Notes: generated by a model from the letters alone, not told the origin. Counted from the first letter of the stretch, positions 4,590-52,905 are shown. The stretch: DNA of 64,000 bases from Escherichia coli (GCF_044324785.1 NZ_CP172127.1); one strand, 5' to 3'. Numbers and translations are program-made.

Positions 4590-4655
4590 AATCAGAAAGA
4601 CGAAGGCCCCGACCGATATTTCTATCAACCGAGGCCAACGAATGAACCAAGCAAT
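4590..4655 (-). ncRNA. sokB: Sok-type antisense RNA of the hokB locus (approximate boundaries)
   Basis: Minus-strand promoter-like TTGCCG-17nt-TAACAT overlapping the mokB start; hok/sok loci carry a short antisense RNA here; ends not determinable by eye. Confidence 0.35.
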
Positions 4656-4659
4656 TCAG

Positions 4660-4849
<190 letters not shown>

Positions 4850-4920
4850 GGGCAAGCGCGGGGATTTTCCCCGCGCATCTGACTAGCAGATTCATTTTCT
4901 CATGGCACCCCTTTTACACT

Positions 4921-5094
4921 TCAGTTAGTGCATGTTTTTTTCGATGCACTAATAGAACCATCATTACAGACAAATTTGCCGCCTGCCGTACAGTGTGAGA
5001 TCCCCCCTTTCGAACCAGAACAGGGTTTGCGCCCGGCATCGGCATAAAAGGAAGCAAGCGCTCCCATAACCAAGATAAGTGCCAGTTTTTTCAT
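4921..5094 (-). CDS. ydcA: small secreted Cys-rich protein YdcA
   Basis: 57-aa product MKKLALILVMGALASFYADAGRKPCSGSKGGISHCTAGGKFVCNDGSISASKKTCTN with signal peptide; GGAGG 4 nt upstream of ATG; below the 60-aa cutoff of the ORF track. Confidence 0.85.
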   Translation of the reverse strand: MKKLALILVMGALASFYADAGRKPCSGSKGGISHCTAGGKFVCNDGSISASKKTCTN

Positions 5095-9926: not shown

Positions 9927-10421
9927 ATGAAAAAAATGTTTCAACTTTTAGAAACCGCCTGGCCTGCCGTAAAAACAACAGGACTTACAGGTTGCGTAAC
10001 CGCTCCGGAAACTGAAGATAACCTTCTTTTATTAGAGGATAAATACGCAACACATATTCCAAAAGACTATCGGCAGTTATTGTCTCATTTTGGCGCATGT
10101 CATTTTGCCGATCCTCAAATTTATACTTTGAAGGATCTGGACAGATATTACCCTCTATTTTTGCAACAATGGGAAGATTATAAAAAAGAATATCCATTAT
10201 TGAACAACATTGATCCTTTTCCTGTTGGCAGTTTTGGCGATGGGAGTGTAGCTTTTCTTGACCGCAACAGCCTAAAAATTTATATTCTCATTCATGATTT
10301 TGGTATATTTTCCGATGATGTCGGTGATTTCCCTTGTGAGTTATGCTTTGAAAATTTTGGTGAGTTAGTGGAAATGCAAGTTGAAATGATTCTTTATTTA
10401 CAGCAATGTGGAGTCTCATGA
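9927..10421 (+). CDS. hypothetical protein, candidate SMI1/KNR4 (SUKH-1)-like immunity protein
   Basis: 164-aa ORF in visibly AT-rich DNA; motifs IPKDYRQLL...FG and PFPVGSFGDGSVAFLD resemble SUKH/SMI1 family signatures; weak SD, start uncertain (ATG at 9927 or 9936). Confidence 0.45.
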   Translation: MKKMFQLLETAWPAVKTTGLTGCVTAPETEDNLLLLEDKYATHIPKDYRQLLSHFGACHFADPQIYTLKDLDRYYPLFLQQWEDYKKEYPLLNNIDPFPVGSFGDGSVAFLDRNSLKIYILIHDFGIFSDDVGDFPCELCFENFGELVEMQVEMILYLQQCGVS

Positions 10422-18663: not shown

Positions 18664-19560
18664 TCAGTAACAGCAGTAGCGAATAAAATAAAAAAATACC
18701 GGAGCGGTGAAAATTAATGAGTCAATCCTGTCAAGGAGTCCGCCATGTCCTGGTAATAGTTTTCCGCTATCTTTAACACCAACATCTCGTTTGATGGCTG
18801 ACATCACTACATCGCCGCAAAAACCACTAATACCAATTAACAAACCCGCTAATAATGCCTGTAATGTATCTAGCGGTGTCAGCAACGGTCCAATAATCAG
18901 TGACGCAATCATGGTGGTGATTACGCCGCCCATCAGACCTTCCAATGTTTTTCCCGGGCTGACTTTAGGGACCACTTTTCTTCTGCCGCAGGATTTTCCC
19001 CATAAATACTGTGCAATATCGTTTGACTCGGTTAATGCCAAAAGAAATAACACCAGTAACGCCCCGCCCTGGATATTTGTGGTTGGCAACATTAATAACC
19101 AGGCGGCATGACTCAAGGTGAAAACGGTCATTATCCAGCCACAAAAAATGGCACTCACGGTATGCAGAAAACCAGAGGGGTCACCCACTAAAACTCGCCA
19201 GGTGGCTAATATCAGAAACCCAGCCAAAGGTATAAATAACAGAAACAGCTCAAAGCAATTAAAACCGATAAGCAAATAGTTAAGAGGAATACCCCAATAT
19301 AACCAACGCGGAAAATGTACAGATATAAGCGTACAATATTCTTTCAATGCCAGAAAACTTATCAGCGCAAAAAACGTCAATGTCATCCAGCGTGGACCTG
19401 AAATCACCATTGAAAAACAAATGACGATGCCCCACCAGGTACGAATACGTAATGTAACTTCATCCCCTTTTCTCTCCGGTAACCGCCATACTAGAAAACG
19501 GTTTATCAGCGTTGCTAAAATTAACAACGCGAAAAGTGTTGCCAGAGATTTTTCCAGCAT
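18664..19560 (-). CDS. ynbB: CDP-diglyceride synthetase (CdsA)-like phosphatidate cytidylyltransferase paralog
   Basis: 298-aa polytopic ORF with CdsA signature SAIKRDVGVKDSGKLLPGHGGLLDRIDS; start codon overlaps ynbA stop (TAATG). Confidence 0.85.
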   Translation of the reverse strand: MLEKSLATLFALLILATLINRFLVWRLPERKGDEVTLRIRTWWGIVICFSMVISGPRWMTLTFFALISFLALKEYCTLISVHFPRWLYWGIPLNYLLIGFNCFELFLLFIPLAGFLILATWRVLVGDPSGFLHTVSAIFCGWIMTVFTLSHAAWLLMLPTTNIQGGALLVLFLLALTESNDIAQYLWGKSCGRRKVVPKVSPGKTLEGLMGGVITTMIASLIIGPLLTPLDTLQALLAGLLIGISGFCGDVVMSAIKRDVGVKDSGKLLPGHGGLLDRIDSLIFTAPVFFYFIRYCCY

Positions 19561-20165
19561 TATCTTTCAGCGCTCATAAGAAGCACACTCCGACAACGAT
19601 TAATCGCAGTCCAGAGAAGCAGAATTGAAGCAATGCTCCATAAAAGATTATTCCATTGCATCCATTGTGGATAAATGGCAATGGCCAGCCCCCACAGACC
19701 AAATATTAACGCGCGATCGCTTTTGCCAAATGGACCGACATAACTACAAATACCGTTAATCGTCTGCGCGAGTAAACCGCAAAACTCGGTCAATATGGTG
19801 CAAAATAACATGAGTATCACGAGTGATGCATTACTTTCAGGTAAAAATAAAAACGGTAAATAGAGCGCAATATCGGAAATAACATCGCCAGTCTCATTCA
19901 AAATCGCCCCAAGACGTGTTTGCTGATTGCACTCGCGCGCCAACATGCCATCCAGCGCATTGAGTGCCATACGAATAAAAAGCACGATGGGCAATAGCAA
20001 AAAGAGGATGGGTTGTGCGACCAACATCAACAGCAATCCGGTAAAAAGAGAAAGCGCCAGTGCAGCAAGAGTGATGTGATTCGCTGTAACATGGTGCTTA
20101 TAAAGCCAAAACATCGTCGGCCTTAACAGCGACTGAAAGAGCGGTTTTATCTGGTAGAGCGTCAT
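19560..20165 (-). CDS. ynbA: CDP-alcohol phosphatidyltransferase family protein
   Basis: 201-aa polytopic ORF (start MTLYQIK) with DG..AR...GD...D-like motif (LDGMLARECNQQTRLGAILNETGDVISD). Confidence 0.8.
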   Translation of the reverse strand: MTLYQIKPLFQSLLRPTMFWLYKHHVTANHITLAALALSLFTGLLLMLVAQPILFLLLPIVLFIRMALNALDGMLARECNQQTRLGAILNETGDVISDIALYLPFLFLPESNASLVILMLFCTILTEFCGLLAQTINGICSYVGPFGKSDRALIFGLWGLAIAIYPQWMQWNNLLWSIASILLLWTAINRCRSVLLMSAER

Positions 20166-20335
20166 TATCAATCCTTGATAATTCTGTTTGCGCTATGGTG
20201 CATCAATTCCCCTGACGGAGATATCGCAACACGCCGCTTCATTAAAAATTCAGAATATATCAAGGTATTGGGGACTCACCGTCAGGAATGCTTATCCCCA
20301 ATAAATCAAGTGGTTAAAAATTATTACGCTGTTAT

Positions 20336-22642
20336 TCAATACAACTCATCAAGTTTTCTCATCGCTTGTTCCCGTATTGCGCGCGTCTTACCGTTAAGCG
20401 CCAGCTGCCGAACTAAATCCAGTTCAGGGTTAACAAGCTCTAACGCCAGCAAAGGATCACGTTTCAGCCTCGCCTTTAATACATCAACTGGAAAACGGGG
20501 ATTATTCATCGCCACAATCCACCACTCGGGATCAATTTCTGCCGCCAGTACTGCAGGCGGTGTGTGGCGGTTGTTAAGTGCGCCGAACTTGAAAAATGTG
20601 AGATTGCTTTTCGCCAGTGTACTCCACCATATACGATCCGGTTGTTTTGCCAGTACATCCAGTTGTGCTAACGCATCGGGGTCTAGTGCATAATAAACAC
20701 GTAACGCTTCGTTAACCTGCGCACGGGAACTGTTTTCCTGCCTCAGAAAAAACTTCGCCCAAATATCATTGCGTGGCATATTTTGCTGTAATTCCTTGAG
20801 GACAACAGCGGGTAAATTATCCCAACTAACTAATGCACTCTCTAAAAAGTCCCAGCCTTCCGAACGTATCAGAGAGGTGGCATTTAATAGCATCTGGTCA
20901 TCAACTTCACCGTGGCTAATCAGCTCAGACAAAATCATATCAGCGCTGGTTTCATATGCATCTGAATCTGCTTTCGGATTATTTTTTCGATGCGATAAAG
21001 CGCGATGCCAAATTTTTTGTTTCATCGCCGTACTCAGATACTGATTTTTCGCCAGATTACTCCACCCCGCAGGATCGTTGAAACGTGTCAATAACCGTTG
21101 TAAAGCAGCGTCAGAGTGAATTACCTGCATATCCCCACAGCAAAAATAGGCAGGAAATTTTTTCTCCATCTTTTTAACAAAATTAAACTGTAAGTTATCT
21201 GGCAATGCTAAAAATAACACACGTATTAGATCATCGTCATTCTCGAATTTTTGGTGTAAATATACTGCTATTTTGTCACTCTCTTGTGGCGTCATCCGCA
21301 ACAATTGACCATGGTGTTTCATCTCTGCCAGCTTTGACGCTAAGCTTGTGACAACATCGTTTGATGAATCGTTCGCCAACTGCATTGCCTGATTGTAGGT
21401 GAGTTGTCCTCCAGCACCGACCTGACGAATAGAGAAATCATCACTGCGGATATAGCCATCAATAATGGATTCGGGCAATAACCACGCATCTTTATAAAGC
21501 TCCTGAATGATCATACCCCAATCTCTTTTCGCCAGAGTCATGACGATATCCAGAGGGAGATTTTCACGTAGCGCAAGATTCAACGGACCGACACCATCAG
21601 GTAGATGACTAATTCGCGTCATTATTTCGACAGAGAGCGGTTCACGGTCGAGCAACCCCAGAACAACAGGCTGGTAACCCAATTGCTGATCGGTCAACTC
21701 CAGAATCTCATTGTCAGGCATATATCTCGCCATACTTGCAATCGTTTGTCCATCATTGCTATTAATAAGTTGTTTGCGTAGGTTAGCTGAAATTCCTTTA
21801 AGCCTTGGGAGAGTTCGCATTATGGCAAGATCAAATGTCGCAATGTCTCGTCCTTCAAATGCAGCAACTTTGCCTTCATCCAGCATTTGTAATTCCTGCA
21901 CTAATTCAGGTGAAGGCTTAGGGCGAAACAGCGCTTCTTTTTTCATCTGATTACAGACATTCCCTGCTATGCGAATATTGCTTCGCTTAAAAATTTCTTT
22001 CAGAGCATCTTCATCATTTATTAGCCCCCAATAATATGCATCAGGATTTATTATCATCAGCGCTTTTTTGACATTTTCAGTGTCATTTTTGTCACTCGCA
22101 CGGACCATGAATTCACTATTTGTCGAAGACGCAACAACAGGTGCAATTATGTCATTGATAAATATCCCACGCGCATTAATACTCCCCTTAATCGTAGACG
22201 GATTATCGTAATATGAGTCGATAAATACCAGTCCACTTGCATTTATCGAACCGGTAATTAACAGTGGTGAATCCGTAACTATATTCGTTGCCGTCACGTT
22301 ACCGAGAATAACCCATGGATTAGAAAGAGAGAAAGTGGAAATATTACCTTTGACTGTCAAATTGCCAAGAACAATCAATTTTTGATTACTCTCTATATTA
22401 CCTTCTACCACTAAATCGCCACGATGCACTTTCCAGTCCGATGCAGATAAACCGAAGGGGACAAGATTCACGCTACTGTTGATAGCTTGTTCAACTTGTT
22501 GTTTATCTTCAGCGGTAGCCGCAGAAAAAAATGGTTCAATATCAACTGCATTTGCAACACATCGAAGTTCCGCCTGTACTGGAAGACTCAGCATAAACAG
22601 GGGAAGTAAACCTATCCAGCTGCAAATCCTGGGCTTAAACAT
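20336..22642 (-). CDS. ydbD: large secreted protein YdbD
   Basis: 768-770 aa ORF with signal peptide (MFKPRICSWIGLLPLFMLSLPVQA); AT-rich; start ambiguous by 2 codons; synteny. Confidence 0.8.
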   Translation of the reverse strand: MFKPRICSWIGLLPLFMLSLPVQAELRCVANAVDIEPFFSAATAEDKQQVEQAINSSVNLVPFGLSASDWKVHRGDLVVEGNIESNQKLIVLGNLTVKGNISTFSLSNPWVILGNVTATNIVTDSPLLITGSINASGLVFIDSYYDNPSTIKGSINARGIFINDIIAPVVASSTNSEFMVRASDKNDTENVKKALMIINPDAYYWGLINDEDALKEIFKRSNIRIAGNVCNQMKKEALFRPKPSPELVQELQMLDEGKVAAFEGRDIATFDLAIMRTLPRLKGISANLRKQLINSNDGQTIASMARYMPDNEILELTDQQLGYQPVVLGLLDREPLSVEIMTRISHLPDGVGPLNLALRENLPLDIVMTLAKRDWGMIIQELYKDAWLLPESIIDGYIRSDDFSIRQVGAGGQLTYNQAMQLANDSSNDVVTSLASKLAEMKHHGQLLRMTPQESDKIAVYLHQKFENDDDLIRVLFLALPDNLQFNFVKKMEKKFPAYFCCGDMQVIHSDAALQRLLTRFNDPAGWSNLAKNQYLSTAMKQKIWHRALSHRKNNPKADSDAYETSADMILSELISHGEVDDQMLLNATSLIRSEGWDFLESALVSWDNLPAVVLKELQQNMPRNDIWAKFFLRQENSSRAQVNEALRVYYALDPDALAQLDVLAKQPDRIWWSTLAKSNLTFFKFGALNNRHTPPAVLAAEIDPEWWIVAMNNPRFPVDVLKARLKRDPLLALELVNPELDLVRQLALNGKTRAIREQAMRKLDELY

Positions 22643-22705
22643 ATGCACTCCATGCCATTAAAAAAGAAACAAAAGGGAAATGCATCTTTCCCTTTTGTAT
22701 ATTCG

Positions 22706-42426: not shown

Positions 42427-42942
<516 letters not shown>

Positions 42943-42960
42943 CACTAACGCCCGCACATT

Positions 42961-42985
42961 GCTGCGGGCTTTTTGATTCATTTCG
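42961..42985 (+). terminator. rho-independent terminator of uspF
   Basis: CCCGCA-CATTGC-TGCGGG hairpin plus CTTTTT. Confidence 0.75.
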
Positions 42986-43117
42986 CAAATGTGCTGACAT
43001 TTTCCCCTCTAATCCGTACCATACACGCCACTGTTTTTATATCAGATTTCTTATGCTGGGCATTCCGGCATGACGCATACTCTTCTGATGCCATATAACG
43101 AATTGAGTCGCTTTTAA

Positions 43118-44053
43118 ATGTCGCAAAATCAAGAAATTAGTAAGAAAGAACAATACAACCTGAACAAATTACAAAAACGTCTGCGTCGTAACGTGGGCGA
43201 AGCCATTGCTGACTTCAATATGATTGAAGAAGGCGATCGCATCATGGTTTGCCTCTCCGGGGGTAAAGACAGCTATACCATGCTGGAGATTCTGCGCAAT
43301 TTGCAGCAAAGCGCGCCAATCAATTTTTCGCTGGTGGCTGTTAACCTCGATCAAAAGCAACCGGGCTTCCCGGAACACGTTCTGCCCGAGTATCTTGAAA
43401 AGCTGGGCGTTGAGTACAAGATTGTTGAAGAGAACACTTACGGTATCGTGAAAGAGAAAATTCCAGAGGGCAAAACCACTTGCTCACTGTGTTCTCGCCT
43501 GCGTCGCGGTATCCTTTATCGTACCGCAACGGAACTAGGGGCGACGAAGATCGCACTGGGTCACCATCGTGACGATATCCTGCAAACGCTGTTCTTAAAT
43601 ATGTTCTACGGTGGCAAGATGAAAGGTATGCCTCCGAAACTGATGAGCGATGATGGCAAACATATCGTGATTCGTCCGCTGGCCTACTGCCGCGAGAAAG
43701 ATATTCAGCGCTTTGCCGATGCAAAAGCGTTCCCGATTATTCCGTGCAACCTGTGCGGTTCACAGCCTAACCTGCAACGTCAGGTAATTGCTGACATGTT
43801 GCGTGACTGGGATAAACGTTATCCGGGGCGTATCGAGACGATGTTCAGCGCAATGCAGAATGTGGTGCCGTCGCATCTGTGCGATACCAACCTGTTCGAT
43901 TTCAAAGGCATTACCCACGGTTCTGAAGTGGTTAACGGGGGTGATCTGGCGTTTGATCGCGAAGAGATCCCACTACAACCGGCGGGCTGGCAGCCAGAAG
44001 AAGATGAAAATCAGTTGGATGAGTTACGACTGAATGTGGTTGAAGTGAAATAA
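43118..44053 (+). CDS. ttcA: tRNA-cytidine(32) 2-sulfurtransferase
   Basis: 311-aa ORF with PP-loop SGGKDS and CxxC motifs; N-terminus [19 protein letters not shown]. Confidence 0.9.
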
Positions 44054-46032: not shown

Positions 46033-47037
<1,005 letters not shown>

Positions 47038-47270
47038 TTATTTTGTAGTCTAGCCTTCTGGCCCTGTTACGCAACATCTCATCACCCCATTACCCTGAAA
47101 TGATTAATAAAATTCTGTCTAAATTGAATACAAAAAGCAAAATGCTTTTCCATATACAAACCGTGTGAAGTGTTAAATAGCGTCTATCATTATCAGAATT
47201 ATCTGATCATATGACGTGGCTTTTTTGCGATCGGATAGCAACAAAAATTGATAAAAATAATGGGATCTCA

Positions 47271-48503
47271 ATGATTACGCACAACTTCAATACCCTGGAC
47301 TTACTCACCAGTCCTGTCTGGATCGTTTCGCCCTTTGAGGAACAGTTAATTTATGCCAATAGCGCGGCGCGACTGTTGATGCAAGACCTCACGTTTAGTC
47401 AGCTACGAACCGGTCCCTATTCCGTCTCCTCACAAAAAGAACTGCCAAAATACCTCTCCGATCTGCAAAACCAACACGATATTATCGAAATCCTCACCGT
47501 TCAGCGCAATGAAGAGGAAACAGCATTGAGCTGTCGGCTTGTTTTGCGAAAGCTGACAGAAGCAGAACCGGTGATTATTTTCGAAGGTATCGAAGCACCG
47601 GCAACGCTGGGTTTAAAAGCCAGTCGCTCGGCAAATTATCAGCGCAAAAAACAAGGTTTTTATGCGCGCTTTTTTCTGACTAACTCTGCACCAATGTTGT
47701 TGATTGACCCGTCACGAGATGGACAAATCGTCGATGCTAACCTCGCCGCGCTCAATTTCTATGGTTATAACCATGAAACGATGTGCCAGAAACATACCTG
47801 GGAAATAAATATGCTCGGGCGTCGCGTCATGCCTATCATGCATGAAATCTCGCATTTACCCGGTGGTCATAAGCCTTTGAATTTTATTCATAGGCTGGCG
47901 GATGGTTCGACTCGTCATGTGCAGACCTATGCCGGTCCGATTGAAATTTATGGCGACAAGCTCATGTTATGTATTGTGCATGATATTACTGAGCAAAAAC
48001 GGCTGGAGGAGCAGCTGGAACATGCTGCCCACCATGACGCGATGACAGGATTACTGAATCGGCGACAGTTTTATCACATTACCGAGCCAGGCCAAATGCA
48101 GCACCTCGCCATCGCCCAGGATTACAGCTTGTTGCTCATCGACACCGATCGTTTTAAACACATTAACGATCTCTATGGGCATTCTAAAGGTGATGAGGTG
48201 TTATGCGCCCTCGCCCGCACTCTCGAAAGTTGCGCTCGCAAAGGCGATTTGGTGTTTCGTTGGGGAGGCGAAGAGTTTGTCTTATTGCTACCAAGAACCC
48301 CACTGGATACCGCGCTTTCGCTGGCTGAAACTATCCGCGTAAGCGTGACAAAAGTGAGTATTTCGGGCTTACCACGCTTTACCGTCAGCATTGGTGTGGC
48401 GCATCACGAAGGAAATGAAAGCATCGATGAACTGTTTAAACGCGTTGATGATGCTTTGTATCGGGCGAAAAATGATGGACGCAACCGCGTGCTGGCGGCA
48501 TAA
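47271..48503 (+). CDS. dgcM: diguanylate cyclase DgcM (PAS-GGDEF)
   Basis: 410 aa from MITHNFNTLDLL; GGEEF active-site motif (RWGGEEFVLLL); track ORF has a 20-codon extension. Confidence 0.85.
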   Translation: MITHNFNTLDLLTSPVWIVSPFEEQLIYANSAARLLMQDLTFSQLRTGPYSVSSQKELPKYLSDLQNQHDIIEILTVQRNEEETALSCRLVLRKLTEAEPVIIFEGIEAPATLGLKASRSANYQRKKQGFYARFFLTNSAPMLLIDPSRDGQIVDANLAALNFYGYNHETMCQKHTWEINMLGRRVMPIMHEISHLPGGHKPLNFIHRLADGSTRHVQTYAGPIEIYGDKLMLCIVHDITEQKRLEEQLEHAAHHDAMTGLLNRRQFYHITEPGQMQHLAIAQDYSLLLIDTDRFKHINDLYGHSKGDEVLCALARTLESCARKGDLVFRWGGEEFVLLLPRTPLDTALSLAETIRVSVTKVSISGLPRFTVSIGVAHHEGNESIDELFKRVDDALYRAKNDGRNRVLAA

Positions 48504-48523
48504 GCCGCGGATGCGTCTCGAGA

Positions 48524-49087
48524 TCAACGACTGCGCTTAGCGTGGCGCTCCCAGTTTTCTTGCTTCGCCTGCGCCGTTTTACGTAGTGCGACGTAACACG
48601 CCCCGCTGCCGCCATGATGCGGTAGCGCGGTGCAATATGCCTGAACATCATCAAATTCGGTCAGCCAGCGCGCCACATAGCTGCGGACAATATTGGCATG
48701 CGATTTATCATCCCGCCCTTTACCATGAATAATCAGCACGTTACGCAAACCATCCGCCAGGGCTTGTTGAATAAAACTGAACACCATTTTGCGGCACTCT
48801 TCCACCGGCTGGCGCAAAAGATTCAGGCTCGCCTGTTGCGGATATTTACCACTGCGCAGCTTATCCAGCACCCCATGTTGCAACCCTTCCCGCCGAAACT
48901 CCAGCGGCTGACTTAGTGGGATGATGTCGAGAAATCCGGTGGTGAGGAAATTATCAAGCTGCAGCGTGTCGATACGCTGCGGCGCACGTTGGTTACGCGT
49001 TGGATGCCAGTGGACATCGGTAGCACGTTTCAGCGGCTGGACATCTTCCATGGCGTCAAGAAACAGCGATTTGTCGTCAAGGTTCAT
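48524..49087 (-). CDS. smrA: Smr-domain endonuclease SmrA (YdaL)
   Basis: 187-aa ORF with Smr domain (LIIHGKGRDD); next to dgcM as in K-12. Confidence 0.85.
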   Translation of the reverse strand: MNLDDKSLFLDAMEDVQPLKRATDVHWHPTRNQRAPQRIDTLQLDNFLTTGFLDIIPLSQPLEFRREGLQHGVLDKLRSGKYPQQASLNLLRQPVEECRKMVFSFIQQALADGLRNVLIIHGKGRDDKSHANIVRSYVARWLTEFDDVQAYCTALPHHGGSGACYVALRKTAQAKQENWERHAKRSR

Positions 49088-49281
49088 GTAACCTCCTATG
49101 CACCTTCACACGTCGTGATTCAGACGGGTTAATTGTTCATACTTACTGCATCGTTCCCTTCACAGATTGAAACAATACTCTACTTCATACCTGTGAGTAT
49201 CTGCGCAGGCGGGGCATTTTATACTAGCCTGTTAGCAGTATCGAACAGTTTAGCCCGAGTTTAATTCAGCACAGGCTCCGA

Positions 49282-50796
49282 TCAGGATGATTTATTCATA
49301 GCAGGAACCAACAAAAATGCGATAAATAACAGACCACTGATTAGCAGAAAGGTATCCGAAAATGCCATAGTTTGCGCCTCCCTCAGCATCAATTGACTTA
49401 ATAATTTGGTTGAAGCCAGTATTTCCGATGTCTGGTCACTTCCACTGCGATTAAAAAACAAAGCACTTCTGGAAATGAAGTCATTCACCGTATGGGGAAC
49501 AGAAACCATTTTTTCACCCATTCTCGAAAAATGAAAATTAGTTCGATTATTGAGAATAGAGCCACACAGGGCAATACCAATCGCGCCCCCAAGATTACGT
49601 GTTAAATTAAATACACCAGAGGCTAACTTCAGCCGTTCTTTTGGAATTCCCCCCAGCGTTAATGTTACGATGGGGGCCATCGCAAACTGCTGCGAAATCC
49701 CTCTAATTGCCTGTGGAAACAGTAACTCCTGCCATCCCCATTCGTGGGTTATCGGGGTAAAAAGATACATTGAAAACACAAATCCACCCAGCCCCGCCAT
49801 CAACAGCCATCGCAGATTTATTTTTTTACTTAACCAGAAGTAAAAGGGAACAGAAAATAACTGGAAAATACCTGTTGTGCAAACGGCAAAACCTATCTCT
49901 TCGGCATTTAATCCGCGAACCTGCCCCAAAAACACAGGTATTAAATATACAGTAGAGAATATCCCAACCCCTCCAGAAAAAGAAAAAAAACATCCCAGCG
50001 TGAAATTTTTATCCTTAAAAGCATGAAGATCCATTATCGGATTGGATATTGTAAGTGTACGCACAGCAAATAAAATAAAACTCACCAATGCCAGAACTGA
50101 TGTCAGCAAAATAGTATTATCATCCAGCCATCCCCAGCGCGCTCCTTCTTCAACGGTATATTCCAGACATCCCAGTGTCATGGCCAACAGGATAATACTC
50201 GGATAATCAGCAACTTTCAGTAAAGAGAGATCAGGTTTATCAAAATTAACCAGAAAAGGAATACTCAAAACTAAATATATGCCAGGTAATATATTGATAT
50301 AAAATAGCCATCGCCAGTCGAGATTATCAGTGATCCAGCCCCCCAGAGTTGGCCCTAGCGTCGGTGACAGTGAGGCCAGCGCACTGACTACCGCAGCAGC
50401 CAACCCCAGCTCTTTACCCTGGTAATAAATAAACGCCGTCGTGAAAACTAAAGGGATCATGGATGCGCCAGCCGCTCCCTGTAAAGCACGAAACAAAATC
50501 ATGATCTGAATATTCCATGCAAGTCCACACGCGATACTCATTAAAGTAAATATTCCCGCGGATAGAGTAAAAAGCCAACGAGTGGAAAATACCCGTGACA
50601 GCCACCCAGAGAGCGGAATAACAATAATCTCAGCAATTAAATAGCTGGTCTGAAGCCAGGCCATTTCGTCTTTACCTGCGGACAGACCACCACCTATTTC
50701 ATTTAGGGATGACGATACAATTTGAATATCAAGCTGAGCAATAAATAATCCCATACACATACTGGCGAAAGCAATATGTTTACGCATAGACATCAT
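49282..50796 (-). CDS. MFS transporter, DHA2 (EmrB/QacA-like, 14-TMS) family
   Basis: 504-aa hydrophobic ORF; start overlaps the upstream MFP gene stop (ATGA); visibly AT-rich; not part of the K-12 gene order I recall. Confidence 0.75.
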   Translation of the reverse strand: MMSMRKHIAFASMCMGLFIAQLDIQIVSSSLNEIGGGLSAGKDEMAWLQTSYLIAEIIVIPLSGWLSRVFSTRWLFTLSAGIFTLMSIACGLAWNIQIMILFRALQGAAGASMIPLVFTTAFIYYQGKELGLAAAVVSALASLSPTLGPTLGGWITDNLDWRWLFYINILPGIYLVLSIPFLVNFDKPDLSLLKVADYPSIILLAMTLGCLEYTVEEGARWGWLDDNTILLTSVLALVSFILFAVRTLTISNPIMDLHAFKDKNFTLGCFFSFSGGVGIFSTVYLIPVFLGQVRGLNAEEIGFAVCTTGIFQLFSVPFYFWLSKKINLRWLLMAGLGGFVFSMYLFTPITHEWGWQELLFPQAIRGISQQFAMAPIVTLTLGGIPKERLKLASGVFNLTRNLGGAIGIALCGSILNNRTNFHFSRMGEKMVSVPHTVNDFISRSALFFNRSGSDQTSEILASTKLLSQLMLREAQTMAFSDTFLLISGLLFIAFLLVPAMNKSS

Positions 50797-51824
50797 CTCT
50801 CATCAACACTGACGGTGACGGACAGTCCCGGGCGAAGAAGTTGCTTTAATTCCTTTGCGTCGTCAAATGCAATCCGTACCGGGACACGCTGAACAATTTT
50901 GGTGAAATTGCCAGTGGCATTTTCTATCGGAATCAAGCTGAAACTGGCTCCTGTCGCTGGGGAAAGGCTTTCAATGTGACCGTGAAACACTTCCCCTTTG
51001 AGAATATCAGCACGGATCTCAGCCTTCATTCCTGGCTTCATTCCCGCTATTTGGTTTTCTTTATAATTTGCATCAACCCACAACTCACTGACTGGTACTA
51101 GTGAAACTAACGATGTGCCGCCTTCCACCCAACTGCCTGTATGGGCGCTGCGGTTTGCGACAATGCCATCAATCGGCGCACGAACAAGGGTATATTCCAG
51201 ATCCAGTAGTGCCTGAGTCAAAGCGGCCTGAACTTCTTCGATACTTGCACGTACGTTTTCTTCCTGAGCAGATAAAACTGCCAGCCGTTGCTTCTCCACC
51301 ATGAAATCGTTCGCGGCTTTGCGCTCCTTTGCTGCGACCTGCTGGTAGTCAAACCTGGCGTTATCAATAATTTGTTGCGATATTGCCGCTGATTGTGCGA
51401 GTTTTTCATAACGTTCAGTATCTCGCAGGCGCTTTTGCTCCTCATGTTTTACTGCCTGCCATGTTTCACTGGCACTTTGAATTATCGACTGCTGCATCGC
51501 AATAGTGGCTTGAATGCTTTCGAGATTGGCTTTGCTACTTTTTATTTTTGCCTCAAGCCTGGCGACATTTGCACGATAATCCCGATCATCGAGACGCAGG
51601 ATAATATCGCCTTTTTTTACGCTCTGATTATCGCGCACCTCTATAGCAGAAATATAACCAGAAACTTTACTTGCCACCGTGGTGATATTACCACCAATGT
51701 AAGCATCATCCGTCGTCTGTATAAATCTTCCTTTGCTTACCCACCAGATAAAAAAGACAACGCCAGCCAAAATAATACCGATCGCTACCACCCCAATAAG
51801 CTGTTTTTTAGAAATTATCATCAC
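50793..51824 (-). CDS. HlyD/EmrA-family membrane fusion protein
   Basis: 343-aa ORF with N-terminal TM anchor, coiled-coil region and C-terminal beta-barrel-like region. Confidence 0.75.
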   Translation of the reverse strand: MMIISKKQLIGVVAIGIILAGVVFFIWWVSKGRFIQTTDDAYIGGNITTVASKVSGYISAIEVRDNQSVKKGDIILRLDDRDYRANVARLEAKIKSSKANLESIQATIAMQQSIIQSASETWQAVKHEEQKRLRDTERYEKLAQSAAISQQIIDNARFDYQQVAAKERKAANDFMVEKQRLAVLSAQEENVRASIEEVQAALTQALLDLEYTLVRAPIDGIVANRSAHTGSWVEGGTSLVSLVPVSELWVDANYKENQIAGMKPGMKAEIRADILKGEVFHGHIESLSPATGASFSLIPIENATGNFTKIVQRVPVRIAFDDAKELKQLLRPGLSVTVSVDER

Positions 51825-51917
51825 TCTTTACACCGTATATATCCGGAAACTTGCATTCGTCATATTTAAAATTTAACATGGCTTATTTGATGATTTCTGA
51901 CAAAATACCTACTGTAA

Positions 51918-52733
51918 ATGACAATCACACTGCAACCCAAAGCATCACCAGGGCATCACATTATCGGACTGGATTCGGAACATCTGAATGGAGGCACAGT
52001 TCCCTGGCATAAACATCTCTATGCCCAGTTGCTTTACCCGGCTGAAGGAGTCGTTCGTGTATGGGCTGGAGAAAGCGTCTGGCTAGTCCATGCCAGCAGC
52101 GCGCTTTGGCTGCCCCCACAAATGCCGCATAAGTTTGTTGCGACAGGCAACGTACTTTTAAAAACCGTACTGGTTTCAGAAGCGGAAAGTGAAACGCTGG
52201 GAAAAGTTTGCTTCATGACGGGTATTTCACCCCTGTTAAGAGAATTACTAATTGCAATTAACCAACTTCCACCGTCGCAAAGTACCACAGATAAACAACA
52301 GTTACGTTTTTCAGCCCTCGAGACACTGATACTTCAGGAAATAAAAATGGGGGTGAAAATGTCACTTGAACTCCCTTGGCCAAATGATGAGCGGCTACAG
52401 CAGCTTTGTGAGAATTTGCTAAACAACCAAGGGTATCTACCAACACTGGATAATCTAGCGGATAAAATTAACGTCAGTAGCCGTACACTCATGCGCTTAT
52501 TTGTTAAAGAGACGGGATTAACATTTCGCCACTGGGTTCAGCAAATGCACGTTATTTCTGCAGTGACGCTTCTTGATGATGGATATTCGTTGACCAAAAT
52601 TGCCCATCGTCTGGGCTATGCCTCAGCTGAATCGTTCGGCAATATGTTTAAGCGTCGAACGGGCTACTCGCCCGGTAAATTTACTCGTCGATTAACGATG
52701 CATGATTATGCAATCACAAGACAAATGATTTAA
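51918..52733 (+). CDS. AraC/XylS-family transcriptional regulator (cupin + HTH)
   Basis: 271-aa ORF; C-terminal AraC-type HTH (SRTLMRLFVKETGLTFRHWV...IAHRLGYASAESFGNMFKRRTGYSPGKF); divergent from the MFP-MFS pair, 93-bp shared promoter region. Confidence 0.75.
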   Translation: MTITLQPKASPGHHIIGLDSEHLNGGTVPWHKHLYAQLLYPAEGVVRVWAGESVWLVHASSALWLPPQMPHKFVATGNVLLKTVLVSEAESETLGKVCFMTGISPLLRELLIAINQLPPSQSTTDKQQLRFSALETLILQEIKMGVKMSLELPWPNDERLQQLCENLLNNQGYLPTLDNLADKINVSSRTLMRLFVKETGLTFRHWVQQMHVISAVTLLDDGYSLTKIAHRLGYASAESFGNMFKRRTGYSPGKFTRRLTMHDYAITRQMI

Positions 52734-52803
52734 CTTATATTTTCGTGAAATCTGTCACTGAAGAAAATTGGCAACGGATGGGTAAAACCGTTATAACACT
52801 GTC

Positions 52804-52898
52804 ACCGGTCACCAGGACCCCAGGCCGGATTTAAGACGAGGATGCACTGCTGTGTGTACTGTAGAGTCTGGCGGATGTCGACAGACTCTATTTTTTTA
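52804..52898 (+). ncRNA. mcaS: small RNA McaS (IsrA)
   Basis: ACCGGTCACCAGGACCCCAGGCCGGATTTAAGACGAGGATGCACTGCTGTGTGTACTGTAGAGTCTGGCGGATGTCGACAGACTCTATTTTTTT matches McaS as I recall it; terminator hairpin plus U-tract; convergent with abgR. Confidence 0.8.
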
Positions 52899-52905
52899 TG
52901 CAGTT

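Follow-up and report, generated by a model that had tools for sequence, protein, structure and literature searches.

The best described relative of the system considered here is EmrAB-TolC of Escherichia coli K-12 (cryo-EM structures 8zal and 8zar), in which an adaptor, EmrA, and a permease, EmrB, are encoded by a two-gene operon that contains no gene for an outer-membrane factor (OMF). The regulator of that system, the MarR-type protein EmrR, is co-transcribed with emrAB. Permeases of the DHA2 family carry two hallmarks, the antiporter motif C (G-P-x-x-G-G) in transmembrane (TM) helix 5 and an acidic residue in TM helix 1. Here we describe a locus of similar layout, a two-gene adaptor-permease operon facing away from a divergent AraC-family regulator gene, in a stretch of 64,000 nucleotides from E. 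coli (GCF_044324785.1 NZ_CP172127.1), which as a whole we call the window. The three genes form an islet between smrA and the small RNA gene mcaS, and the interpretation we favour, and hold to be very probable, is that they represent an efflux module which was inserted between these two neighbours without mobility machinery and which specifies an AraC-controlled, EmrAB-like pump.

The limits of the islet were placed by blastn against the corresponding locus of strain DH10B (K-12), with which homology stops at window position 49097 and restarts at 52698; the 3600 bp in between have as their K-12 counterpart a segment of just 111 bp, whose similarity to the islet on either strand was not above that of shuffled sequences. 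The islet contains the permease gene, the adaptor gene, the regulator gene and nothing else (Table 1). The initial annotation had singled out these genes as unfamiliar from the K-12 interval and as AT-rich, and both points held: the block is missing from the site in DH10B/MG1655-type genomes, where the 111 bp stand instead, and its GC content is 44.1% vs 48.8% for the whole window. The GC content at third codon positions (GC3) of the islet genes is 0.39-0.43 vs 0.51 ± 0.06 for the 37 other open reading frames (ORFs) of the window, that is, ~1.3-1.8 standard deviations towards AT, a shift that is real but moderate. Elsewhere in the window, the cluster at 18664-22648 is as AT-rich as the islet; the ORFs of this cluster and that at 9927-10421 (GC 0.37-0.44, GC3 0.29-0.48) equal the islet in AT level or go beyond it, and they may also be accessory DNA.

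No target-site duplications, direct repeats or terminal inverted repeats were found at the islet ends (49098 and 52697), no integrase or transposase gene is among the islet ORFs, and an Rfam scan of positions 47000-55000 returned McaS as the only RNA gene and no tRNA. All matches from a tblastn search for carriage of the module on plasmids proved to be chromids, chromosomes labelled wrongly or distant homologs. The absence of an integrase or transposase, of a tRNA or att site and of flanking repeats led us to reject a classical genomic island or integrative element as a description of the islet.

Table 1. Features of the islet and its immediate neighbours (positions counted from the first nucleotide of the window).
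Feature	Coordinates	Strand	Basis or remark
smrA, DNA endonuclease SmrA; left flanking core gene, downstream of the pump operon, same direction	48524..49087	-	
Spacer from permease stop to smrA start, 194 bp	49088..49281	-	takes the place of the ancestral smrA upstream region
Islet proper	49098..52697	no strand	blastn vs DH10B locus; 111 unrelated bp in K-12-type genomes
DHA2-family MFS efflux permease, predicted EmrB paralog, 504 aa	49282..50796	-	ORF and TIGR00711
EmrA-like membrane fusion (periplasmic adaptor) protein, 343 aa (GTG 51824) or 342 aa (ATG 51821)	50793..51824	-	
Divergent control region between adaptor and regulator genes, 93 bp	51825..51917	no strand	cross-genus alignment
AraC/XylS-family regulator with N-terminal cupin domain, 271 aa	51918..52733	+	Pfam, AlphaFold, Foldseek
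Last 11 regulator codons (MHDYAITRQMI) and stop, resident E. coli DNA	52698..52733	+	K-12 homology starts at 52698
McaS small RNA, right flank	52804..52899	+	Rfam RF00115, 113.5 bits, E = 3.1e-21

The product of the permease gene, a member of the major facilitator superfamily (MFS), matched the DHA2 model TIGR00711 with 406 bits (cut-off 230.2) in a single stretch, residues 9-496 covering model positions 3-480 of 485, and its best solved relative is EmrB of E. coli (chain 8zal_J, E = 5.8e-56, residues 12-489). On the EmrB model NF000391 it reached 220.2 bits, far below the cut-off of 925, and the protein is a paralog of EmrB and not EmrB itself. Its translation contains the antiporter motif C LSPTLGPTLGGWI and, in TM1, the acidic-residue segment AQLDIQIV, both invariant across the aligned orthologs. 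A crude Kyte-Doolittle scan (threshold 1.5) gave 12 peaks, among them two overlapping pairs, which corresponds to ~10 distinct segments; 14 TM helices would be implied by the alignment from end to end to the EmrB structure, which has 14, and by that to the orthologs through the last helix.

The adaptor, a membrane fusion protein (MFP), aligned over its full length with the EmrA/EmrK model TIGR00998 (residues 7-340 vs 2-334 of 334) and passed the general adaptor model TIGR01730 (132.9 bits, cut-off 94.9), and its match to EmrA (chain 8zar_A, E = 2e-43) spans residues 6-341. On the EmrA model NF011715 it scored 207 bits against a cut-off of 563. Hydropathy places one N-terminal hydrophobic anchor at residues 9-27. 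The ATGA at 50793-50796, read directly from the sequence, joins the adaptor stop to the permease start by an overlap. The initial annotation had thus been right in coupling an EmrA/HlyD-type adaptor to a 504-residue DHA2-type permease, in seeing the pair as an EmrAB paralog and in placing a divergent cupin-AraC regulator of 271 residues beside them; the 343 residues it gave for the adaptor apply if translation begins at the GTG, and become 342 with the ATG start that RefSeq uses.

The same set of genes was found in other genera. The divergent arrangement of the regulator gene and the adaptor-permease pair recurs in Kluyvera cryocrescens and Providencia rettgeri, each time in an unrelated genomic context, while permease orthologs that are ~82% identical are scattered among Citrobacter, Hafnia, Pluralibacter, Yokenella, Serratia and Salmonella. 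In Acinetobacter, a 44%-identical AraC protein is likewise encoded divergently from an MFS gene, and there are natural adaptor-permease fusion proteins of 866-867 aa with 61% identity. From the conserved arrangement in Kluyvera and Providencia, the divergent Acinetobacter pair and the fusion proteins we infer that the three genes form a module. The loci matched in a scan of genome contigs were limited to one in Kluyvera, one in a divergent Escherichia and those of Paraburkholderia. The synonymous divergence (dS) from Kluyvera is saturated, so that none of the module-bearing taxa compared, Kluyvera included, is the direct donor of the E. coli islet.

All three islet ORFs are full length against their orthologs; the permease aligns with the 505-aa proteins of Kluyvera, Providencia and Hafnia (82% identical) up to and including its last TM helix. 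The ratio of nonsynonymous to synonymous divergence (dN/dS) was 0.12-0.15 for all three genes (~0.14 for the permease, as compared with the divergent Escherichia lineage E69, and ~0.15 for the adaptor), which indicates purifying selection. This ratio, taken with the intact lengths, argues that the three genes are functional.

The regulator has the architecture expected of an AraC/XylS transcription factor that carries a cupin sensor domain, with a predicted C-terminal double helix-turn-helix and an N-terminal AraC_binding/cupin domain: Pfam domains PF02311 (AraC_binding), PF07883 (Cupin_2), PF12833 (HTH_18) and PF00165 were assigned on a 99%-identical representative, and Foldseek matched the protein over its full length to ToxT, Rns and CsvR as well as to the AraC dimerisation domain. 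The AlphaFold model has a pLDDT of 91.4, with ~50 in the C-terminal 11-residue tail. At the positions where cupins canonically hold their metal ligands, the regulator has H31, H33, Q37 and H71, none of which varies among 35 homologs with identities as low as 28%. The classical cupin motif reads HxHxxxQ ... H, and to our knowledge a full metal-ligand quartet is unusual among AraC-family sensor domains. These residues hint that the regulator holds a metal-containing sensor site. Kluyvera and Providencia share with the 93-bp control region a conserved block at ~51868-51913, beside the regulator start, and the whole region is 98.9% identical in the E69 locus. A consensus scan of the islet for promoters and terminators gave counts not above those of shuffled sequences, with only weak sigma-70-like matches in 51825-51917. 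Our search of the literature for cupin-AraC regulators of efflux found nothing relevant.

According to the interpretation we favour, the regulator would bind a small-molecule signal in its cupin domain and would control the divergent promoter region. The translationally coupled adaptor and permease would assemble with a chromosomal outer-membrane channel, by analogy with EmrAB most likely TolC, and the assembled pump, a putative EmrB-like proton antiporter, would export an amphipathic or aromatic compound. The unit would in that case be tripartite, as the initial annotation has it, with its third part supplied from outside the islet. That an outer-membrane partner is to be expected for the E. 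coli pump is suggested by Paraburkholderia, in which a homolog with a 52%-identical permease lies in a MarR-MFP-MFS-OMF cluster.

The metal-ligand quartet also bears on what the pump may be for, as it is feasible that the module, instead of expelling xenobiotics, serves to export a substance of the cell itself or of its host, such as a fatty acid, a bile acid, a siderophore-like chelator or a signalling molecule, which is sensed via the cupin metal centre. Such a role would suit the Foldseek matches of the cupin domain to small metal-binding cupins and quercetin dioxygenases, the binding of fatty acids that the match descriptions give for the structural neighbours ToxT and Rns, and the enrichment of the islet in B2-type extraintestinal strains, e.g., IHE3034. 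However, no biosynthetic or uptake genes lie beside the module in E. coli, Kluyvera or Providencia and none of the evidence indicates a particular substrate, and we consider this specific role unlikely.

To gauge how widely the module is carried, we turn to its distribution in 5426 complete E. coli genomes. Islet sequence is present in 1457 of these (~27%), and 1316 match over at least 80% of the islet length; 3850 have the K-12-type empty site. In the K-12-type configuration, abgRABT is present and the islet is not. The configuration of the window, in which the islet stands beside the abg operon, occurs in 313 genomes, including porcine O139:H1 and enterotoxigenic E. coli strains. In the B2-type configuration (AZ167, IHE3034) the islet is accompanied by a deletion that has left a 3' remnant of abgR at one end and the last ~144 nt of abgT at the other. 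AZ167, IHE3034 and E69 all lack abgR-abgA-abgB-abgT save for the diverged abgR remnant and this abgT end (L003 10334-10877, L017 5136-5668 and L009 about 4600-5043; equivalent to about 53025/53119 to 58163 of the window, in which the identity of AbgR is backed by an NCBIfam equivalog model), and the deletion in the B2 genomes and in E69 appears to be the same one. The islet junctions are likewise the same in the B2 strains and in E69, whose flanks are ~9% divergent, and the acquisition is therefore neither recent nor strain-specific.

The state of the islet within the carriers was assessed in 40 evenly spaced rows of the list of 1457. The complete 3.6 kb is present as one collinear piece in 33 of these. 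Three carriers share a 204-bp deletion across the adaptor-permease junction (e.g., EC444, L022 544-2820) and another three a 1.85-kb deletion in the adaptor and permease sequence (e.g., HM670, L019 1744-2373), the regulator gene being intact in all six; in the one left, only the 3' part of the regulator gene remains.

Several of our observations weigh against an intact and active EmrAB-like pump, or temper it. RefSeq, through its annotation pipeline PGAP, calls the permease gene frameshifted in every islet genome inspected, and in E69 the gene is split, by a real frameshift or an assembly error. With pump genes destroyed in 6/40 sampled carriers, and a seventh reduced to the regulator remnant, about one carrier in six has lost the pump, which is thus dispensable in some lineages. 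The adaptor falls under the EmrA/EmrK subfamily cut-off of TIGR00998 (267.4 vs 390.8 bits), there is no outer-membrane factor gene among the islet genes, and we found no experimental study of the islet genes in the literature. In addition, the dS comparison that we use below comprises one B2 genome and one divergent genome.

Some of these points could be read to mean that the pump is a decaying pseudogene remnant without current function, and that only the regulator is maintained. The PGAP flag is in favour of such decay, as are the two recurrent deletions, which take adaptor and permease sequence and spare the regulator gene, and the permease gene of strain N3, which has two genuine 1-bp deletions, so that the flag is correct there, in addition to the split gene of E69. 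The 504-aa permease ORF is nevertheless uninterrupted in the window and in the B2 strain AZ167, whose gene shows no indel relative to the window, and it matches the 505-aa orthologs of other genera from end to end. The flag itself is likely to be a systematic annotation artefact: in the annotated pseudogenes (L001 3942-5395, L003 6942-8397, L017 1744-3199 and L018 1744-3199) the PGAP end lies 59 nt short of the real stop, at the position that matches the early ends of the 484- and 488-aa forms of Shigella flexneri, and it is these forms, seemingly used as the reference protein, that are truncated. The dN/dS of both pump genes and the large majority of sampled carriers that keep the entire islet speak further for a maintained pump, and we judge general decay to be very unlikely.

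The question of whether the islet was gained, or lost from K-12-type strains, was approached through outgroups. In Citrobacter koseri and C. rodentium, ogt stands directly beside smrA (L021 4964-6564 and L020 5208-6564). The 111 nt upstream of smrA in K-12 are collinear with the DNA of C. rodentium at this position (z = 10.5, a score reached by 0/500 shuffles) and score z = 2.9 against the smrA upstream DNA of C. koseri, whereas the corresponding sequence of the window gives z of about 0 against Citrobacter. On this alignment the K-12 allele is the ancestral smrA 5' region, which the islet allele has lost. The right junction is equally informative. In alignments, T260 of the E. coli protein pairs with the last residue of the AraC orthologs of Kluyvera, Salmonella and Providencia (259-262 aa), and the junction (52697/52698) falls at precisely this point; the E. 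coli protein has 11 extra residues (MHDYAITRQMI), which are encoded exactly by the K-12-shared DNA from 52698. A single insertion in which the native stop codon was lost explains both the end of the orthologs and the resident-encoded tail, while under a deletion in K-12 the two would have to coincide by chance.

The age of the islet relative to its surroundings agrees with a gain. Against E69, dS is 0.08-0.18 for the islet genes and 0.34-0.96 for the flanking genes; against the B2 strain, the values are 0.004-0.024 and 0.05-0.12. The Citrobacter-like DNA upstream of smrA in K-12, the regulator tail at the junction, the low GC3 and the low dS of the islet taken together settle that the event was an insertion and not a loss from K-12. 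The horizontal acquisition proposed at the outset from composition alone is in this way upheld by junction and outgroup evidence. The opposite polarity, an ancestral islet deleted from K-12-type strains with the last 36 bp of the regulator gene left as a scar, would account for the homology to these 36 bp that K-12 keeps and for the islet at the same site in the ~9% divergent E69, but it is highly improbable given that the tail is absent from every ortholog in other genera and hence is resident DNA, that Citrobacter homology is found in the 111 bp of K-12 with no trace in the islet allele, and that an islet dS 2- to 10-fold under that of the flanks makes the islet younger than the split of the lineages.

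Insertion, the reading we retain, would have taken place in an ancestor of Escherichia, with the islet replacing the ancestral smrA upstream region. Entry was probably by illegitimate recombination, after which the islet would have moved from lineage to lineage by homologous recombination in the conserved flanks. The window itself is recombinant, a further point in line with a gain: as far as mid-mcaS it has the haplotype shared by the islet, B2 and E69, and beyond this the K-12 haplotype takes over and extends into abgR. In both C. rodentium and C. koseri the abg operon and mcaS are absent beside smrA; as neither stands between ogt and smrA in Citrobacter, the abgRABT-mcaS block may itself be lineage-specific.

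On its left side the islet reaches to ~10 bp from the start codon of smrA, at the Shine-Dalgarno sequence of that gene, whose product matched the equivalog model NF033154 (252.8 bits, cut-off 180), in agreement with RefSeq. The initial annotation had the operon transcribed toward the smrA promoter; the direction is correct, but the ancestral upstream region of the gene, which can still be recognised in K-12 and Citrobacter, is gone and has been replaced to within these ~10 bp. No intrinsic terminator was recognisable on the minus strand of the spacer at 49088-49281 (fold z-score -0.59), and its single weak promoter-like site lies at 49244-49216. The 184 bp of the spacer that belong to the islet (49098-49281) have no homology to the DNA downstream of the permease gene in Kluyvera or Providencia, and the spacer has none to the smrA upstream DNA of Citrobacter. 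A spacer without a recognisable terminator makes read-through from the pump operon into smrA plausible, and unterminated pump transcripts would in that case run on into this gene.

On the right side, mcaS starts 71 nt past the stop codon of the regulator gene, on the same strand, and no terminator was predicted between the two. Over the 130 nt that follow the islet on this side, identity to K-12 is only ~88%, and the McaS allele differs in the loop of its 5' hairpin, which is GCAGAGGAGACAAT in K-12 and TCACCAGGACCCCAG in the window, with the CCGG/CCGG stem retained. It could be proposed that the insertion also rewired its neighbours, with smrA co-induced with the pump, a metal-dependent cupin-AraC sensor, and the regulator gene reading toward a variant mcaS. 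We think it quite doubtful that this whole combination applies; if it did, the SmrA endonuclease would be co-induced with the pump by whatever signal the regulator senses.

One further observation concerns a different part of the window (42436-43118), where uspF ends 175 bp before ttcA with no prophage between them. We take K-12 to carry the Rac prophage at this position. In AZ167, integrase and DUF1627 fragments are found upstream of ttcA.

Found in ~27% of the complete E. coli genomes, with IHE3034 and other B2 extraintestinal pathogens among its carriers, the islet represents a common accessory system of putative efflux function. Its genes carry generic annotation in thousands of genomes, and the apparently wrong pseudogene label on the permease may have hidden it from analyses of the resistome and the pangenome. 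In extraintestinal pathogenic E. coli, the islet is a candidate to be screened for inducers and for effects on minimum inhibitory concentrations. It also offers a clean case of gene gain without mobility genes, with both junctions defined to a few bases, the loss of a promoter region that was resident at the site, and a regulator gene whose new C-terminal tail comes from host DNA.

The comparison with known systems shows that the pump belongs to a well-known family and is not a new kind of system. Closest are the orthologous modules of Kluyvera cryocrescens, Providencia rettgeri, Hafnia alvei, Citrobacter freundii and Salmonella enterica, which have the same gene order and divergent arrangement, permeases 82% and regulators 70-81% identical to those of E. 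coli, an overlapping or abutting adaptor-permease junction, and the conserved block beside the regulator start. They differ in their neighbourhoods, in regulators of 259-262 aa that lack the 11-residue E. coli tail, and in a divergent intergenic region ~22 bp longer than that of E. coli. The Paraburkholderia clusters, of an EmrRAB-OMF type, resemble the islet in having a permease 51-52% identical to its own with an EmrA-like adaptor gene adjacent; unlike the islet, they have MarR regulators in place of an AraC protein and their own NodT-type OMF immediately downstream. With EmrAB-TolC the islet shares, besides its operon structure, an adaptor that has an N-terminal membrane anchor and that aligns to EmrA with hardly any gaps in the central region. 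It is nonetheless a distant paralog (220 bits for the permease against the EmrB cut-off of 925, and 207 bits for the adaptor against the EmrA cut-off of 563), its adaptor lacks the C-terminal extension of EmrA past residue 346, its regulator is a divergent cupin-AraC protein where EmrAB has EmrR, and it is an accessory pump of about a quarter of E. coli genomes, unlike the core EmrAB.

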